A DNA stretch of 64,000 nucleotides from the NCBI RefSeq assembly GCF_026210795.1, contig NC_089430.1, positions 248,001 to 312,000 of the forward strand. The letters are read 5' to 3'. A program made the translations under genes and the position numbers. Below the pieces are notes generated by a model. The model searched no databases, was not told the DNA's origin, and saw only the letters and a list, made by a program, of their open reading frames with translations. Below, piece by piece: positions 8,778-54,699 of this stretch. Origin of the DNA: Rhizophagus irregularis (taxonomy: Eukaryota). Positions within the stretch are counted from its first letter, which is position 1. Each line of letters begins with the position of its first letter.

Positions 8778-11348
8778 ATGTCTCAATATAATGATGTTGA
8801 TTATACAACAGATATCGATTGGCTTGAAGAAGCAATAGCTAAAAAATACTTTAAATATTATGAATTCGAGAATTTTAGCAATATTCAAGAAATTGGTACT
8901 GGAGGTTTCGGAAAAGTTTTCCGCGCAAGTTGGAAAAGTTCAGGACAATATTTAGCCTTAAAAACTTTTTTTAATTTTGATGATGCTACAATTAAAGCAA
9001 TATCTCGTGAGGTAATTATATATATATATATATATTTGTAAGTCATTGATATGATTAGTTATTTTTCTACATATTAATTTTTAATTCAAATTATTTAGTT
9101 AAAACTTCAACGTGAAGTTGATTTTCATAATAATATTATTCGTTTCTTTGGAATTACAAAATATGAGCCAGGTAATTATCACGTACTCCCATTGATCATT
9201 TATCGTCCTTTAAGGACTTTATAATACTATACAAGCTCAATAATTAATGAAGTTTTTTTATAATATTATTAGAAAACAAAAATAATTTATTAAACTTGAA
9301 CCGGTATTCATTAGTAATGGAATATGCCGATAATGGTACGCTTCGAAAATATTTGGGGAAAAATTTCGATAATATTACTTGGAAAGATAAACTAAATATG
9401 GCTTATCAACTTGCCAGTGCCGTTTCATGTTTACATAACGAAGGTATTGTGCATAGAGACCTGGTAATTATTACAAATTATTATAAATGTTTTTTATCTA
9501 TAATATTTGCATGTATATATTTATTTATATTATTCTTTTGATAGCACTCCAATAATATATTGGTTCTTAAGAATAAGATTAAATTGGCCGATTTTGGATT
9601 ATCAAAGAGTATTGAAGAAACGTCTAACGTGCAATCTTCAAAATTATTTGGTGTTATTCCTTATATTGATCCAAAAAGATTAATGAATCAAAAATATAAA
9701 TTAAATGAATTGAGTGACGTATATAGTGTTGGCGTGTTATTGTGGGAAATATCCAGTGGTAAACAACCTTTTTGTAGTGAAGGTGAAGCATATGATATTG
9801 GGTTAGCTTTTGAAATTTCACAAGGTTCTAGGGAAGAACCTATTCCTGATACGCCTGAGGCTTATGTTACGCTTTATACCGGTAAATTTTAATTTTTTTT
9901 TTCCTTATGCGAAAAAACATTAAATCCTTAGAATTTATTTAATCTAAAATTAACCTTCTTTCTTATTAGAATGTTGGGATAAAGAACCAATTTTTCGTCC
10001 GACCATGAATGAAGTAGTCGATCAATTGGGAGCAATTATGTATTCAATTAGCGAAATAAACGAATATAATACTGTAAGTGGACGACAAAAAAATGATTCA
10101 ATTACTGGTGAAATTGAAAATTGTGTTGCTTCTGATGATTTAATTGCATGTAAGAAAATGGAATGTTCCAACAAACAAGATATACAAGATGAACAAGATG
10201 AACAAGATGATAAAAGTGATGAAGAATTAATAAATAATTCAAATTCTTCATTTATAAAGCCATTAATAAGCGTAATAGCTGATGAAATGGCTAACCTAAT
10301 TTTTAATGAAGAAAAAAAATTGGAAGTGTCTACTATTTGTCGTTATTGTGAAGTTTATAATGTCAAATCAGAAGAAGTTTATGAGTGGTTATTGGAAAAC
10401 CAATATGATTCAAATTATATTTTTTTACTCGGAGTTTTTAATCATTTAGGAATTGAAACTAATGCTAATAAGGAAAAGGCGGTCGAATTATATCAAAAAG
10501 CGGCAGTCTTAGGACATAGTGTAGCGCAGTATAATCTTGCTTGTATGTATAAAGAAGGAAAAGTTGTATGTCGAGATAATGAGAAAATTTTTAACTTACT
10601 TGAAAATTCAGCTGAAGGAGAATACTTAAACGCAATAAATATGTTAGGAGAGTGTTATTATAAGGAAATCGGAACTGATATTGACAAAGAAAAAGCTTTT
10701 GAGTTATATCAAAAAGCAGCGAATTTAGGGCATAGTGTAGCTCAATATAATCTCGCACAAATGTATAGAAAAGGAGATGGTGTTGATAAAGATGAAAAGA
10801 AAGCTTTTGAATTATTTGAAGAATCTTCTAAAGAATGTTTAAACGGAAAGTTTATGTTAGGGTACTGTTATAGTAAGGGAATTGGAACTAGTGTTGATAA
10901 GAAAAAGGCAGCCGAATTATATCAGCAATCTGCAGATCAAGGACATGAGTTAGCTAAAAATAATCTTGCCATTTTATATAAGAGAGGAGAAGGTGTTAAT
11001 AAAGATAGTGACAAAGCTTCCGAATTATTTAAAGAATTATATCTCAAAGGATACTCAAATATATACGGTACAATATTAGATTGTTGTGATATTGATGATG
11101 ACGAGAAAGGGCAAGTTAAAAGTTTTTTTAATAATAAGTGTGTGAGTTTAATCAATACTTTAGTTAGTGATCTGAGTGACGAAAAACAAGTTGAAATTTG
11201 TCAGGCTGCAGCAGAAGTTGGACAAAAGTTGATTAAATTCGATTCTGCTGAAATTGTTGATAATTATAAAACTTGTGAAGGGATTATTAAAAATATAAAA
11301 AATGTGTTCTATAGGAGTGCGGATGAAATTAAAAAATTTAAGAATTAA
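8778..11348 (+). CDS. Tyrosine-kinase-like protein kinase with C-terminal Sel1-like repeats; exons 8778-9011, 9099-9171, 9273-9463, 9545-9881 and 9970-11348
   Basis: GTGGFG, ALK, HRDLHSNN, DFG and SDVYSVG kinase motifs; the GT-AG introns are phase-consistent; Sel1 repeats such as AQYNLAQMYRKGDGVDKD. Confidence 0.93.
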
Positions 11349-21099: not shown

Positions 21100-23900
21100 T
21101 GTAAATTCAACTACTGAGGAGTAACGTTTAATAATATCATGCTGTATTAACAAATGTACGAGATAGCCCATGTTTATTTGAAAAAAAATTTGCCATGAAG
21201 TTTTATCACGAACGCTGAGATTCTGATAATGATATATTATAACACGGGATATCACACTCTCGCACATTAATAAAAATGCTCAATATGATCGAAATATTAT
21301 CATGTACAAAAAAATTAGGAAAGAATGTTAAACTTTCTTGTTCTAGTGTTTCGTGGACTTTTCTTGTGATCACACATGTATAGTACACATGTATAATACA
21401 CATTGAAGGAATTAACGTTTTAAACATTTTTTTTCTCCTAGTAAATAAAACAGGAACCCAGTAGTATACATGATAAAGAGTTCATATTAATGATTTCACT
21501 CGTAAATAATAAATCTCAATAATAAAATAATTTTAAAAATATTTTATTTAAGTATAAGTAAATTTATAAACAATATTATATAATACAGTAACGTTTCACG
21601 GCGCAGCCGTGAAAATCATGATATTTATTCGACACATGAAATAACTCTTTTATCTCATGGAGACTAACGTCCAGTGATGGGAAAGAGGGAAAGAGTGGGA
21701 AAGGTATAAATAAATTATAAAAACACGTGAACATGAAAAATATTATCAGAAAAATTACAGGCATGAATATATCATCAAAAAAATCACTGGCGACCAATTA
21801 GTAAACATGAGATAAATAATTTTAACTGATATTTTTAAGTTATCACTGATTATTATATTTCCTTTCCTGTGATGAGGCTACACGTATATCTGGTCTTGAT
21901 TGTCTTCTTTTCCAATAAAAGTATATAAGAAATGAAGCCCCTATCAAGGCAAGCACGATTGATAAAATTATAATTCCTATGACAAGATATCTGTTTTGAG
22001 TACTTAGATTTTTGTATAAATTTTGATCTGGAAGATTCGGACGATCTGAAAGATCTGGATTAAACTCATTAACCCATTTGTAATTAGATTTATCGTACGT
22101 GTCTAAAATAAATACTTCATTTGATGTGGGTAGTGGTAATTCATTATTAGTTTTTCCGAAAGCCACGAACATATAATAACCGACCAAAGTAGCCGTATGG
22201 TAAAAACGTGAAGGTGGTGGATCTATAGCATTCACATTTGACCATGTATAATCATATGTATCTAATATCACAAGATCATCGCTTACAATACTACCACTAC
22301 CAGTATAACCTCCATACACGATAATACGACCATCTTGAGCTATATAAATTAGAGAACAATTTAATATATTACCCATTTTATTAAATTTAATTCACAACAA
22401 TATATAATTACTCAGAACGGCAGAATGGTATGCACGAGGTGTTGGCGAATAACCAGTGGCTTTCTGAGATATCCATGTATCATTATTTGTATTATACAAA
22501 AGTAGCTATTTTTTTTTTAAAAAAAAATTATCAGTAAATATACAATTTAGACCCTCAATTAATCAATTAAACGGTGCCGATTTACCTCTGACATTTTCAC
22601 AAATCCTCCGTTAGGTAATTTACCACCTATATAAACAATATAACCGTTTGGCAATAAAGTACCCGTATGATCGTACCTTCCTTCTTGAGCATTAATGTTA
22701 ACATGTTCCCACACCAGCGTCGATGTATTCAAAATATCCATATAATTATTAATTTGGTTAATTTGAAGTCCCGGATTGAGTCCACTAAATCTATACATTT
22801 TTCCAGTTCTAACATCACAAACGGTCTGGCTCTGGCTGTGAAAATTATATTGAGGTGGATTGATGGTCGTAGAGATATTCCATTGTTGTAAACTTGTGTA
22901 AGTGTAGACTGTAGCAGTATCTGTTCCTTGTTCTCCATTATACAAAAATAGAGAATTATCAAGTCCACAGTTTGAAAAGGCGCTCCATGTATGTGCTGGA
23001 ATATTTTGCGATACGGAACTAAGATCCACCCAAGGTAATTTATCTCCTGCTCCGACTTTAAAGGGTTTCTCGACGTCTAAATAATAAAATTCTTTGGAAA
23101 GTGTTGATTCTTTAAAATCATCCTTGTATTTGGGAAAGAGACCACCTGTAAAATATATTCTAGAATATGCAAATACGGCGCTGTGGCCCCAAACTGTGTT
23201 GTTAGGCGTGAAAGCCAAAGTGGACTCATTGAGATACAGGCAAATAACGATTAAGCAGAAGAAAAGCATTATCAATAATCATAAGGGAGTTGAAAATTAC
23301 AACGAGAGACTTGTTTTAATATTAATATAATGATACAACGAAAAATACATATGGATATTTTCGATGCTAGAATTCGATATTTATACAAACTAAAAAAATG
23401 CCAGGACGATTAATAATTTGAAAATCAATGAACTACTTTGTTAAGAAAAAATAATAAAGTGAATGTTTCAGGAATGTATTTCGGATTTTTATTTACATTC
23501 ATTTCTTACGTAAATGTATCCTTCTTATACTTATTATACATGTACGACCAACCCATTTGCTAATTATGATCGACAAGTAAAGTTTATTTTGTAAACAAAT
23601 ACGAGGATCATTTCCCGGAAAATTTTCGAAAGCAATTTTTTGAAAGAAATTGAAAATTTTTTTATAATAAAATACGTGGATTAACTTAAAGCGTTAGTAT
23701 GTTCCATATATTATTTAAGCCCTTGTTATATAATACAAAACATTATTTATTCTAGACCAAGAAGTTTATATAATCGGAATGGGATTTCCAATATAGTCAC
23801 ACAATAGATGATTAGACGCAGTAATTGTGTTCAGATATCGGCTATACACAAAAAAAACCGGAATTAAACACCATGACGATCTAACCAAATTATATGTAAA
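21100..23900. repeat. Segmental duplication unit 1, paralogous to ~51725-55265
   Basis: Gene, introns and both flanks are shared (for example gaagtaacgtttaataatatcatg and ccatgacgatct). Confidence 0.9.
21843..23275 (-). CDS. Kelch/galactose-oxidase-type beta-propeller single-pass membrane protein, copy 1; exons 23275-22586, 22505-22412 and 22339-21843
   Basis: Signal peptide; kelch motifs GHSA..YFTGG, RYDHTG..YIGG, RAYHSA..VYGG and RFYHTA..AFG; C-terminal transmembrane helix followed by KRR; phase-consistent introns. Confidence 0.9.
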
Positions 23901-33458: not shown

Positions 33459-36400
33459 TTAATTTTCATCTATTTTAATATCTAAATAATTAAATATTAA
33501 ATAAAATTAATTTCACATAAATAATTTTTTTATATCATAATACATACATACCTAATGACCCCAAATCCTTAATTATATAATCATTCAAATCTTCACTTAC
33601 TAGCATTTCATTTGCTTTAGCTTGTGAATCTTCAAGAATTTCATTCAATTTTTTACTAGTAAAATCAAATAAGCGACTTGTATAACATACTTTAGGATGA
33701 GATTTAGTAGCAAGATTGTTACGTCCAATTGGTGCATTTATAAATGCCATAATATTGCTTTTTAATTCTTCATTTACTTCATTATTATAAGGACGGAAAA
33801 TCCAATTCTTAATAACTTTTTCCACTTCTGAAGTAGATGGCCTTTTTAATGGATCTTCGTTCCAACATTTTTTCATTAAATCTACATAGCATTGTGGAGT
33901 ATTTTCAATAATTTCAGGACGTTCACCTTTACAGATACTTAAACTAAGTTGAATATCATGTGCTCTATCATTAAATGGTGGTACTCCAGATGTAAACTCC
34001 CACATAATCATTGAAAAGCTATATATATCACTAGCTAGAGTATAAGATTTGCCTCTTAAAACTTCAGGAGCCATAAATGGCATAACACCATAAATATCAT
34101 ACTTTTCCAAAACCGATTTTACAGGTTGACATAATCCTAAATCACTAATATAAATTTTATCTTCGTTTTTATCATTATGATTTAAAATATTACCATCATG
34201 AAAATCACAATGAATAAGATTTTTTTCATGTATCTTACTAAGTCCAGAAATAATATGGTACAACATAAATAATTTTTGTTTCCAATTATTTTCAACTATT
34301 CTTGTTAAATTTTCTCTTAAATTACCTTTATTTGCATAATCCAATACTACCATATTTTTTGAAGTATTTGGATCTTCTGTAAATCCATAAAATTTAATAA
34401 TATCATTACTTGAACAATTTTCATGATATTCCCACTACAAAAAATTATAATAATTTATTAATATAAATTATAAAATAAAAAATAATATACTATCAATATA
34501 TCATACTTCTTTCAAAAATTCATTTAAATTTTCATTTATATTCTTGTGACATTTAAGAATTACTTTTTTTTCTTCATTATTCTTTAACCAAATAGCTTTG
34601 TATATAGTACCAAACCCTCCTTCATTAAGATATTCAACATTTTTAAATTTGTTATAAGGAATCCATTTTAATTTTTTTTCAAGAATAAAATCATCTATAA
34701 TTGTATTTCCACTTTTCCCAAACCTATAAATTTAGGTAATTAAAATTATATTATAGATTGTATTATAATTTACACTAAAATAAATTATTACTTACTCTAA
34801 AATTTAAATAGGAATTTAATGTAATATAAGTCTTAGTTTTTAGATAAATACATATAATAACTTATAATTTACAACTTACCAACTAAAGTAACAGATATTT
34901 TTTAAATGAAAGAATTCAATTAACAAAGAAATATTATATAAAATATATAACAATAAATAGAATTAAATAAATAAACTATGGCTTACAAACTAAAATAAAT
35001 TACAAAATAATTTTTTAAATAAAGAAATTAGTTAGTTTAAATTATATATAAATATTATAACAATAAGTAATTATAGAATTAATTAAATAACTTACTCCCT
35101 ATATTATTTAATAATTTTTTAAATAAAGAAATTAGATAGTTTAAAATATATGTAAATATTATAACAATAAGTAATAATAGAATTAACTTACTCCCTATAT
35201 TATTTAATAATTTTTTAAATAAAGAAATTAGATAGTTTAAATTATATATAAATATTATAACAATAAGTAATAATAGAATTAAATAAATAACTTATAACTT
35301 ACGATCTATTAAATAAAGAAATTGATTAGTTTTAATTACATGTAAATATTATAACAATAAGTAATAATAGAATTAAATAAATAACTTACCCGCTATATTA
35401 TTTAATAATTTTTTAAATAAAGAAATTAGTTAGTTTAAATTATATATAAATATTATAACAATAAGTAATAATAGAATTAACTTACAAACTATATTATTTA
35501 ATAATTTTTTAAATAAAGAAATTAGATAGTTTAAATTATATGTAAATATTATAACAATAAGCAATAATAGAATTAAGTAAATAAACTATGACTTACCAAC
35601 TAAAATAAATTACAAAATAATTTTTTAAATAAAGAAATAAGTTAGTTTAAATTATATGTAAATATTATTACAATAAGTAATAATAGAATTAAATAAATAA
35701 CTTACTAACTATATTATTAAATAATGTTTTAAATACAGAAATTAGTTAGTTTAAATTATATGTAAATACTATAACAATAAGTAATAATAGAATTAAATAA
35801 ATAAACTATGGCTTACCAACTAAAATAAATTACAAAATAATTTTTTAAATAAAGAAATTAGTTAGTTTAAATTATATGTAAATATTATAACAATAAGCAA
35901 TAATAGAATTAAATAAATAACTTACACTCTATATTATTAAATAAAAAAATTAGTTAGTTTAAATTATATGTAAATATTATAACATTAAGTAATAGAATTA
36001 AATAAATAACTTATGACTTACTAACTATATTATTTAATAATTTTTTAAATAAAGAAATTAGTTAGTTTAAATTATATGTAAATATTATAACAATAATTAA
36101 TAATAGAATTAAATAAATAAACTATGGCTTACAAACTAAAATAATTACAAAATAATTTTTTAAATAAAGAAATTAGTTAGTTTAAAATATATGTAAATAT
36201 TATAACAATAAGTAATAATAGAACTAAATATTAAATAACTTATAACTTATGATCTATTAAATAAAAAAATTAGTTAGTTTAAATAAAGAAATTAGTTAGT
36301 TTTAATTATATGTAAATATTATAACAATAAGTAATAATAGAATTAAATGAATAACTTACCACCTATGAAATAATTTTTTAAATAAAGAAATTAGTTAGTT

Positions 36401-38840
36401 TTAATTATATGTACAGTAAATATTATAACAATAAGTAATAATAGAATTAAATAAATAACTTACTCTCTATATTATTTAATAATTTTTTAAATAAAGAAAT
36501 TAGTTAGTTTAAATTATATGTAAATATTATAACAATAAGTAATAATAGAATTAAATGAATAACTTACCACCTATGAAATAATTTTTTAAATAAAGAAATT
36601 AGTTAGTTTAAATTATATGCAAATATTATAACAATAAGTAATAATAGAATTAAATAAATAAACTACTATGGCTTACCAACTAAAATAAATTACAAAATGA
36701 TTTTTTAAATAAAGAAATTAGTTTAAATTATATGCAAATATAATAACAATAAGTAATAATAGAACTAAATATTAAATAACTTATAACTTACGATCTATTA
36801 AATAAAAAAATTAGTTAGTTTAAATAAAGAAATTAGTTAGTTTAAATTATATGTAAATATTATAACAATAAGTAATAATAGAAATAAATAAATAAACTAT
36901 GGCTTACAAACTAAAATAAATTACAAAATAATTTTTTAAATAAAGAAATTAGTTAGTTTAAATTATATGCAATTATTATAACAATAAGTAATAATAGAAT
37001 TAAATAAATAAACTATGGCTTACCGGCTAAGATAAATTACAAAATAATTTTTAAATAAAGAAATTAGTTAGTTTTAATTATATGTAAATATTATAACAAT
37101 AAGTAATAATAGAATTAACTTACTCCCTATATTATTTAATTAAAGAAATTAGTTAGTTTTAATTATATGTAAATATTATAACAATATGTAATAATAGAAT
37201 TAAATAAATAACTTACCCTCTATGAAATAATTTTTTAAATAAAGAAATTAGTTAGTTTTAATAACAATAAGTAATAATAGAATTAAATAAATAACTTACC
37301 ATCTATGAAATAATTTTTTAAATAAAGAAATTAGTTAGTTTTAATTATATGTAAATATTATAACAATAAGTAATAATAGAATTAAATAAATAACTTACGC
37401 TCTACATTATTTAATAATTTTTTAAATAAAGAAATTGATTAGTTTTAATTATATGTAAATATTATAACAATAAGTAATAACAGAATTAAATAATAACTTA
37501 CTCCCTATATTATTTAATAATTTTTTAAATAAAGAAATTAGTTAGTTTTAATAACAATAAGTAATAATAGAATTAAATAAAAAACTTACACCCTATAATA
37601 TTTAATAATTTTTTATTTTTTAATAAAGAAATTAGTTAGTTTTAATTATATGTAAATATTATAACAATAAGTAATAATAGATTTAAATAAATAACTACCA
37701 TCTATAAAATAATTTTTTAAATGAAGAAATTAGTTAGTTTAAATTATATGTAAATATTATAACAATAAAGTAATAATAGAATTAAATAAATAACTACCAT
37801 CTATAAAATAATTTTTTAAATAAAGAAATTAGTTAGTTTAATTATATGTAAATATTATAACAATAAGTAATAATAGAATTAAATAAATAACTTACCCCCT
37901 AGTACATTATTCAATATTTTTTTTAAATAAAGAAATTAATTAAATTATATAATTAATATAAAATTGTAAATATAGATATCATATAACTTACACCCTGTAG
38001 TATTATTAATTATTAATTAGTTAGGTATAAAGATAATATAAGTGTATTTACTGTAAATTATATACATTACTTACAATCTAGTTATTTAAATTAAGAATAT
38101 AATTAGTTGAATTATGTAAAATATTAAACAAACAAATATAATATATATTGTAACTTACCATCTATAATATAATTATTAAATAGTTATTTAAACAAAGAAT
38201 TTAGTTATTGAATGTTATATAGAATAAATAAAGTTAAAGGACTAAAGGTTTAAATAACTGATAACTTACCAACTACAGTATTATTAATCATTAAATAAAT
38301 TATTTAGTTATATGGAATACAATAAAAATAATGAGTAATTCATTATTATTTAATTATATTAACTTACGAGCTAAATATTTAATATAATTTTTATATAATA
38401 TAGTTAGCCTAAATTATATTTGTAGTATTTGAATTGTTTATAAATAAAACTTAATATTTCAGCTTGTTTGATATACCTTTAGATTCCTTGGTGTCACTTC
38501 CTTCAAATTCCTCAATACTACTACTTTCAAATTTTTTAGTACCACTTCCCTCAAATTCTCCAGTTTCACTTTCTTCAAATTCTTCTATATTACTGGAAAC
38601 TAGTTTTGTTGTATTACAAATTTGGTTTAATAATATTTGATTATTTACAATGAAATTTTTTTAATAAATAAAAATCTTAATATTTCAACTTTGTTTTGTA
38701 TATTATATTTACCTTCAGGTTCTTTGACATCACACAAAACTAGTTTTATTATATTGCAAATTTGTTTTAAAAATTTTGAATAATTCTAATTTATAATTAT
38801 TCATGTTATAGGCTTTACCTTTATCAATACGTTGGTCCAT
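33459..38840 (-). CDS. Tyrosine-kinase-like kinase with a micro-exon-encoded N-terminal segment; exons 38840-38819, 38739-38713, 38599-38477, 34 3-nt exons (38370 to 34880), a 1-nt exon at 34796, 34723-34507, 34434-33552 and 33481-33459
   Basis: The spliced ORF is continuous: MDQRIDKVLCDVKEPEVSSNIEEF...KESK-ALDDWWDDGWKHEGTVYLGESVFKFVIVSDRRIFE-FGKSGNTIIDDFI...EGGFG...VILK...HCDFHDGN...SDLG...APE...SDIYSF. All introns are GT-AG. Confidence 0.85.
34790..38400 (-). repeat. Tandem array of about 36 intron-plus-micro-exon units (~80-120 bp each)
   Basis: Each unit reads cttac-NNN-ct(a/g) on the + strand, which is YAG|NNN|GTAAG on the minus strand; most also carry ttagttag (CTAAC branch point). Confidence 0.95.
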
Positions 38841-52420: not shown

Positions 52421-53846
52421 TTAATTCGCTTCCTGTGACGAGGGTACAAGCATATCTGGTCTTGATAGTCGTCTTTTCCTATAAAAGTATATAAGAAACG
52501 AAACTCCTATCAAGGCAAGTACGATTGATAAAATTATAATTCCTATGGTAAGATGACTGTTTTGAGTTTTTAGATTTTTGTATGAATTTTGATCTGAAGG
52601 ATATGGAAGATCTGAAAGATCTGGATTAAACTCATTAACCCATTTGTAATTAGATTTATCGTACGTGTTTAAAATAAATACTTCATTTGATGTGGGTAGT
52701 GGTAAATCATTATTAGTTCTTCCGAAAGCCACGATCATATAATAACCGACCAAAGTAGCCGTATGGAAAAAACGTACAGGTGGTGGATCTATGGCTTTCG
52801 CATTTGACCATGTATAATCATATGTATCTAATATCACAAGATCATCGCTTACAATTCTAAAATCACCAGTATAACCTCCATACACGATAATACGACCATC
52901 TTGAGCTATATAAATTAGAGAACAATTTAATATACTACCCATTTTATTAAATTTAATTCACAACAATAAGATTAATGATATAATTACTCAGAACAGCAGA
53001 ATGGTATGCACGAGGTGTTGGTGAATAATCAGTGGCTTTTTGAGATATCCATGTATCATTATTTGTATTATACAAAAGTAGCTATTTTTTTTTAAAAAAA
53101 AAAGAAATAATCAGTAAATATACAAGTTAGACTCTCAATTAATCAATTAAACGGTGCCGATTTACCTCTGTCATATCTGCATATTCCCCGTTAGGTAATT
53201 TACCACCTATATAAACAATATAACCATTTGGTAACATAGTACCCGTATGATCGTACCTTCCTTCAGTGTTAACATGTTCCCACGCTAGCGTCAATGTATT
53301 CAAAATATCCATATTATTATTATTATTGTCTGGTTGAAGTACCGGATTGATTCCACCAAATCTATACATTTTTCCAGTTCTAACATCACAAACGGTTTGG
53401 CTCTGGCTGTGAAAAGTATGTTGAGATGTATTGGTGGTCGTAGAGCTGGTCCATTGTTATAAATTTATGTAAGTGTAGACTGTTACGGTACTTACGGCAT
53501 CATCTGGTTCTCCAATATACAAATATAGAGAATTATCAAGTCCACAATTTGAAAACGCGCTCCATGCATGTGCTGGAAGATTTTGCGATACGGAACTAAG
53601 ATCCACCCAAGGTAATTTATCTCCTGCTCTGACTCTAAAGGGTTTCTCAACGTCTAAATAATAAAATTCTCTGGAAGGTGTTGACGGTTCAAATTTATCC
53701 TTGATTATGGGAAAGATACCACCTGTAATATATATCCTAGAATTTGCAAATACGGCGCTGTGGCCCCAAACTGTGTTATTAGGCGTGAAAGCCAAAGTGA
53801 ACTCATTGAGGCACAGGCAAATAACGATCAAGAAGAAGAAAAGCAT
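52421..53846 (-). pseudogene. Kelch membrane protein, copy 2, with one in-frame nonsense codon
   Basis: Same exon structure as copy 1; TAA at 53459-53457 where copy 1 has CAA; the frame continues intact afterwards. Confidence 0.85.
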
Positions 53847-54699
53847 TATTAATAATCATGAGGGAGTTGTAAATTACAACAAGAGGTTTGTTTTAATATT
53901 AATATAATGGTATAACGAAAAATACACATGGACATTTTTGATGCTAGAATTCGATATTTATGCGAGCTAGAAAGATGCCAAGACGGTTAATCATTTGAAA
54001 ATCAATAAACTACTTTTTTAAGGAAAAATAACAAAGTGAGTATTTTAGTAATGTATTTTCGGATTTTATTAACTTATAATTATGATCGACAAGGCAATAA
54101 CACATGTATTTTGCATAATTCATTTCAGTAAAGTTTAATGTTGAAAACAAATATGGGGATCATTTCCAGTCAGAGACCCGGAAAATTTTCGAAAGAAGAA
54201 ATTAAGTAATTGAAAATTTTTTTTATGCATAATCGAAAATAATCTAAATAATAAAATAATAAAAATACATGGATTAAAAAGTGTATCTAAATGAAAAATA
54301 TATTATAGAGAGAACTTGGTGTTTCTTTAAAGCAGTACTATTGAGAGTTTGACAAATTCTTATTGATTGTTATAAAGCGATAGTATGTTCCATTTTCACC
54401 AATGTGTATGTATTGAATACAATAATATATCATACATATATATCCTGGCTAAGTAAAATTTTACTAGGATCGGATAAATGATCGGCCGATAGGCCGATCA
54501 TGTTTCGATTCTAAAATAAAAATTTTACTATTCCAAATTAGCCATGATATAATTGATTTATCCCCTGCCATTTACACAATAGTAAGTGTTTTATAGTATA
54601 TCGTGAGTATAAATATAGTATATTTTATTGTTAAATCTTATTTTCTTTCGCTTTGTTTTTTTTTCATTTTAAGTTTTTAAAAAAATGATTAAATTTTAA

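Follow-up and report, generated by a model that had tools for sequence, protein, structure and literature searches.

A probable one-base exon between a predicted array of three-base exons and the kinase domain in a gene of Rhizophagus irregularis

Exons of a single nucleotide are known but very rare, as the initial annotation of the DNA studied here stated, and few nuclear cases have been described. The single-nucleotide exon A333 of APC11 in Arabidopsis was proven by reporter mutagenesis (PMC4674806), while the one-base exon of the Fusarium gene CYP621A was described in 2026 as the second case (PMC12940212). A further one-base exon comes from placozoan mitochondria (PMC5436844). The nank genes of the truffle Tuber carry arrays of codon-sized exons, and alternative splicing of these microexons was reported (PMC4986451, PMC13449251, PMC3689799). 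An expansion of tyrosine-kinase-like genes was noted in the arbuscular mycorrhizal fungus R. irregularis (PMC4219462).

The window, which is the whole stretch of 64,000 nucleotides analysed, is AT-rich and carries on its minus strand a gene for a tyrosine-kinase-like kinase of the R. irregularis type. The minus-strand frame from 34434 to 33538 passes the Pfam threshold for the kinase family PF07714 (117.2 bits against a cut-off of 23.1; E = 1e-33), and the two kinase exons scanned gave kinase-type matches only, without any non-kinase family (no NACHT, no ankyrin). The main kinase exon is 99% identical to GBC39036.2 of R. irregularis (P0001), and the named top matches belong to Rhizophagus. The layout of the gene is given below in the order of transcription (in motifs, hyphens mark exon borders; L001 to L003 are genomic homologues and the X numbers are sequencing runs, both introduced further on).

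38819 to 38840, minus strand: predicted first coding exon, 22 nt, from the sequence and from similar N-termini in the paralogue models P0027 and P0057
38713 to 38739, minus strand: predicted exon, 27 nt, from sequence and frame
38477 to 38599, minus strand: predicted exon, 123 nt, coding for an acidic Glu/Ser-rich segment with seven database relatives, two of them annotated as joined to a kinase
34880 to 38370, minus strand: array of 34 predicted three-base phase-1 exons with repeat-like introns of 80-113 nt, giving a 34-residue segment
36251 to 36253, minus strand: array unit AG-ATC-AT, whose donor is AT and not GT, likely skipped with the frame unaffected
34880 to 34882, minus strand: last three-base exon, TTG, from which the Glu codon takes its first base; also TTG in the majorities of the four runs and in L002
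34797 to 34879, minus strand: GT-AG intron, 83 nt, upstream of the one-base exon (89 nt in L002)
34796, minus strand: predicted one-base exon A, placed in the middle of the F-E-F-G Glu codon, changing phase 1 to phase 2; from motif, frame test, paralogue contigs and L001 to L003
34724 to 34795, minus strand: GT-AG intron, 72 nt, downstream of the one-base exon (72, 85 and 90 nt in L001, L002 and L003); the junction contigs have their loose ends at the 3' end of this intron
34774, minus strand: decoy site AG-T-GTAAAT, likely not the main exon; absent from L002 and L003, with A and not T in the junction majorities
34507 to 34723, minus strand: first kinase exon, entered in phase 2, starting G-TTT GGG AAA
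34435 to 34506, minus strand: intron inside the kinase domain, 72 nt, skipped in contigs of X1, X2 and X3
33552 to 34434, minus strand: main kinase exon, PF07714, E = 1e-33
33459 to 33481, minus strand: last coding exon with the stop, after a 70-nt intron; joint 33481-33552 seen in X3

Spliced in this way, with the A included, the full model is an open frame of 465 amino acids whose end matches annotated C-termini.

The likeness to CYP621A is that of a fungal nuclear gene with one base between AG and GT that leads from phase 1 to phase 2 as the middle base of a codon, and that is conserved among homologues and supported by public reads (PMC12940212). The Fusarium exon has ordinary exons on both sides and is part of a fixed P450 motif (PMC12940212), whereas the one-base exon predicted here comes after a run of about 34 three-base exons in a family with many copies, and its residue is changeable (Glu, Lys). 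APC11 offers a single A between two GT-AG introns, a frame that needs this A, and an annotation that missed it, as found here. It is however a single-copy plant gene, while the kinase family is multi-copy and has shorter introns and a three-base upstream neighbour exon (PMC4674806). The nank genes likewise form an expanded family in a mycorrhizal fungus, and their tens of codon-sized exons are interpreted as a means of diversification. They belong to another phylum, however, and are NLR-like, with NACHT and ankyrin domains that are not among the families matched by the two kinase exons; the kinase gene would work like them without being a member. No report of microexons in Rhizophagus or Glomeromycotina, Glomeromycotina kinases included, was found in the open-access literature. 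One-base exons and codon-sized exon arrays are each already known; for the arrangement predicted here, a one-base exon closing a triplet array in a Glomeromycotina kinase, the same literature gave no report.

At 34796 a single A is preceded by AG and followed by GT (TTTTAG-A-GTAAGT on the minus strand), with introns of workable length on both sides. The splice motif, the intron lengths (83 and 72 nt, both GT..AG) and the closure of the frame when no extra base is included are confirmed, and the coordinates and phase arithmetic of the initial annotation are correct. The exons of 22, 27 and 123 nt and all triplets end in phase 1, and the kinase exon at 34723 requires phase 2. Joined through the A, the protein reads F-E-F-G; the T at 34774 would give F-V-F-G. 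Leaving out the extra base closes the frame after nine codons. The one-base motif alone is not unusual because at least one YAGNGTAAGT is present in 39 of 100 shuffles of the window (one observed, 0.51 expected), and its window-wide rarity was dropped as evidence on this ground. For the 147-nt interior where the base is needed, YAG-N-GTAAG arose in 12 and YAG-N-GTAA in 140 of 5000 dinucleotide shuffles. The phase match had initially been taken as independent support for the micro-exon, which was overstated. An enumeration of all AG/GT paths from the second-last triplet (introns of at least 40 nt, up to three internal exons) gave 55 open frame-restoring paths, and this number rules out phase arithmetic as proof. 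Six of these paths use strong sites: one through the A exon, two through the T exon, two through an acceptor at 34694 and one through a 10-nt exon at 34882-34873. With either of the last two solutions a one-base exon is unneeded. The claim for the A exon is made because of transcript-type contigs and conservation, not because of phase.

The run search listed matches to the gene in 24 public runs, none of which is on record as RNA, and seven were compared (X1, X2, X3, X4, X10, X12, X13). The RNA label of a run is a guess, which for X10, X12 and X13 is based only on the places at which their contigs depart from the genome. The lack of RNA-recorded runs says nothing on expression and was discarded as evidence about it. 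Among the seven runs, X1, X2 and X3 are those with contigs that show a spliced joint over 34435-34506 (GT-AG ends); the record from X2 matches the window without a difference. Contigs identical to the window skip 34435-34506, so transcription and splicing are shown for the window copy or for another identical to it. X4 behaves as DNA because its contigs cover all bins, introns included, and have no joint over this intron; it gave no sign of an intronless copy.

The segment 34640-34900 is represented by 70 contigs from four runs, corresponding to four studies, with the restriction that assembled contigs drop rare forms. Loose ends at 34722 occur in 18 of them (two from X1, seven from X10, six from X12 and three from X13). 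In each of the four runs the majority loose end reads CTT-TTG-A-A before TTTGG on the coding strand, that is x-Phe-Glu-Phe-Gly, and the Glu codon assembled from three exons, as first proposed, holds. These are per-run majorities rather than single sequences, with an agreement of 0.70, 0.67, 0.69 and 0.98 in X1, X10, X12 and X13, the low values arising because letters further upstream differ among paralogues. One further X10 contig, with its loose end at 34716, reads K-L-L-R-I-P-F-E-F-G. In paralogues one A follows the acceptor at the start of the kinase exon (L001 and 23 X4 contigs at 34723), and the last triplet TTG stands directly before GT (window and L002), so that one A of the junction is left over. 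Neither a shift of the donor, whose next base is G, nor a shift of the acceptor (AGA) works as its source, and among the 55 paths only the A exon produces the TTG-A-A-TTTGG junction. Transcripts of the family, as seen in four run majorities that stem from paralogues or alleles, hold an extra base contiguous with neither neighbouring exon.

The junction contigs differ from the window at 2-12 positions over up to 84 nt among the pieces listed; none of these pieces is identical to the window across the junction and none ends at 34723. The cDNA probes that the initial annotation had designed were matched in part: the extra A is present in contigs of paralogues or alleles, and the exact probe ending with the G at 34723 was not seen. 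At 34723 the junction contigs have A, like the 23 contigs of X4. The absent cover of 34730-34900 in X1, X10, X12 and X13, and of the region past 34724 in X1-X3, was not taken as evidence. It is very unlikely that the window copy restores its frame without a one-base exon. The acceptor at 34694 and the 10-nt exon at 34882-34873 are both open and plausible sites, and the database models P0027, P0157 and P0160 enter the kinase at a 34694-type acceptor. Such models look automatic, however, and an F-E-F/Y-G-K/R junction is found in none of the 189 database proteins examined, while in the junction contigs TTG-A is followed by entry at the 34723 acceptor and no loose end is listed at 34694.

At 34723 (minus strand) the window has G; the X4 contigs and L001-L003 carry A there. 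With the 72-nt intron spliced out, this G would form another AG, two bases beyond the acceptor and possibly a weak frame-shifting competitor. One type of paralogue contig (X10, X13) has its loose end at 34726 and matches four bases deeper into the intron end; it may carry another base or layout.

Conservation was examined in a metagenome scan that returned six loci, three of which are readable in the flank upstream of the exon (L001, L002 and L003, with 88, 68 and 75% protein identity); L001 lacks the upstream triplet. L004 (match at the contig start) and L006 (13-residue match) were left out, and L005 is without the one-base-exon/array architecture. The scan of viral contigs gave no match and that of genome contigs a single 13-residue match. 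AG-A-GTAAGT is kept in all three readable homologues, which answers in the affirmative the conservation check suggested at the outset. In their alignment the A sits in an invariant block of 11 bases while the neighbouring intron sequence drifts. The codon at the site encodes Glu in L002 but Lys in L003, and a site kept despite a change of residue is as expected if the frame matters. The extra A of the expressed paralogues might alternatively belong to a four-base last exon, with AG-A-GT merely a conserved intron motif, and the transcript contigs, which are not paired to their own genes, would allow it. Window and L002 hold both TTG-GT and AG-A-GT, DNA-type X4 has no insertion at 34879-34882 among the rows listed, and the motif stays intact next to drifting sequence, which makes a four-base exon highly improbable. 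The extra A in junction contigs and the site kept in three of three homologues bear out the A at 34796, and we hold it very probable that it is a real one-base spliceosomal exon. The exact window copy is presumably spliced in the same way.

In L003, the unit before the one-base exon (118-172) contains a short internal duplication in which AG-CAA lacks a good donor and is followed by CAA-GTAAGT without AG; read as one 36-nt exon, this duplication would keep the phase.

This layout is missing from every database gene model examined, and protein database searches found no protein with the F-E-F-G junction. Seven of the 189 proteins were modelled by reading the intron into the same donor (L-N/I-L-E-F/S/Y-G), which points indirectly to further paralogues that keep the site, and four of the set read through the one-base site. 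The N-termini of the family models are scattered and many were apparently read from introns. Those of P0013, P0017, P0029 and P0081, models that come from R. irregularis, R. diaphanus and R. clarus, seem to have been translated from array introns or through the donor of the one-base exon. There are hints that the layout of array and one-base exon could span the genus Rhizophagus.

The array upstream would amount to tens of codon-sized exons in one gene, with 34 predicted AG-NNN-GT units and one AG-ATC-AT between 38370 and 34880 (minus strand). The three-base-exon motif was counted 33 times against 1.37 expected, a number reached in none of 100 shuffles. Array introns are 80-113 nt long (224 nt across the dead unit). 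The 34 triplets are of 17 distinct types and have a GC content of 43%, compared to 12% in the introns. Within a repeat-like zone of 29 units, 24 pairs have 80-nt flanks that are at least 90% identical (mean 95.4%). The same triplet is found in three of these 24 pairs, and mean triplet identity is 50%; in one pair the flanks are identical and the exon bases differ at two of three positions. The 24 pairs are not independent, and the pattern recurs in all four groups of related units. Triplets far more variable than near-identical introns suggest diversifying selection or targeted change, which may be the larger finding. Skipping of a single triplet leads to a stop in three of the 34 cases, including the last TTG. 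The majority of X13 can be divided into nine triplets in phase 1, and the set of the window includes eight of these, which hints that transcripts of paralogues are assembled from triplet arrays.

The unit at 36251-36253 carries AT where the GT donor would stand, and its twins at 36794 and 35305 keep GT. It is likely a switched-off exon, a means to alter the length of the segment without a frameshift.

One unit without GT, and the lack of any window-identical contig seen across the junction, would also fit a 5' part of the window copy that is a decayed repeat outside the kinase mRNA. We give this reading hardly any credence: the full model is open over its 465 amino acids, the GC contents of triplets and introns are far apart, window-identical contigs show the kinase part spliced, and among triplet sets generated at random with the composition of the introns 1.9% contain no stop, although the share rises to 25% in order shuffles. 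Choosing the T at 34774 as the one-base exon, which would keep the frame, with Val and a 50-nt downstream intron, and was ranked as the weaker option by the initial annotation, is extremely improbable and the ranking is upheld: the site exists in the window and, among the homologues, in L001 only (absent in two of three), its donor is weaker, its intron is shorter than any array intron (at least 80 nt), and all four run majorities show A.

Other genes of the window deserve mention. Two similar copies of a multi-exon gene lie about 30 kb apart at 21843-23278 and 52421-53855 (minus strand); judged by eye, their product may be a repeat protein of the kelch type whose C-terminal part holds a membrane segment. 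At 9311-11348 (plus strand) lies the gene of another, distant kinase (31% identity to P0001), followed by a repeat region that, again by eye, may be Sel1-like.

On the preferred reading, a one-base exon at 34796, the A would move the transcript from the phase-1 triplet array into the phase-2 kinase exon, as the middle base of the Glu codon. Splicing would most likely be of the ordinary spliceosomal kind, by intron definition, with the short AT-rich introns removed in turn. Short introns of fungi are generally recognised across their own length. With the introns here recognised in this way, exon size should be irrelevant and a one-base exon would need no room; once one flank is spliced out, the A would be just the end of a longer exon. 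Because the one-base exon adjoins a three-base exon, a single codon would be drawn from three exons. The exon may act as a constitutive, fixed phase adaptor: any number or subset of triplets keeps phase 1, so that one fixed base would keep every N-terminal version in frame with the kinase, and loss of the A would yield a truncated product.

The nank genes of Tuber reportedly also carry a 1-bp exon. If true, the whole layout has a precedent and the kinase gene would be a convergent case. It is possible, and we put it forward tentatively, that Rhizophagus kinases build a hypervariable N-terminal recognition segment codon-exon by codon-exon, under diversifying selection and alternative splicing and with a conserved one-base coupler, as a form of receptor diversification in arbuscular mycorrhizal fungi that is hidden from current annotation and convergent with truffle nank. 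The layout implies that many R. irregularis kinase models are without their true N-terminus. This N-terminal segment would be where variation concentrates, making it a testable candidate for diversifying signalling or recognition proteins, and the recurrence of the one-base exon in a multi-copy family would provide natural replicates for how the spliceosome handles minimal exons.
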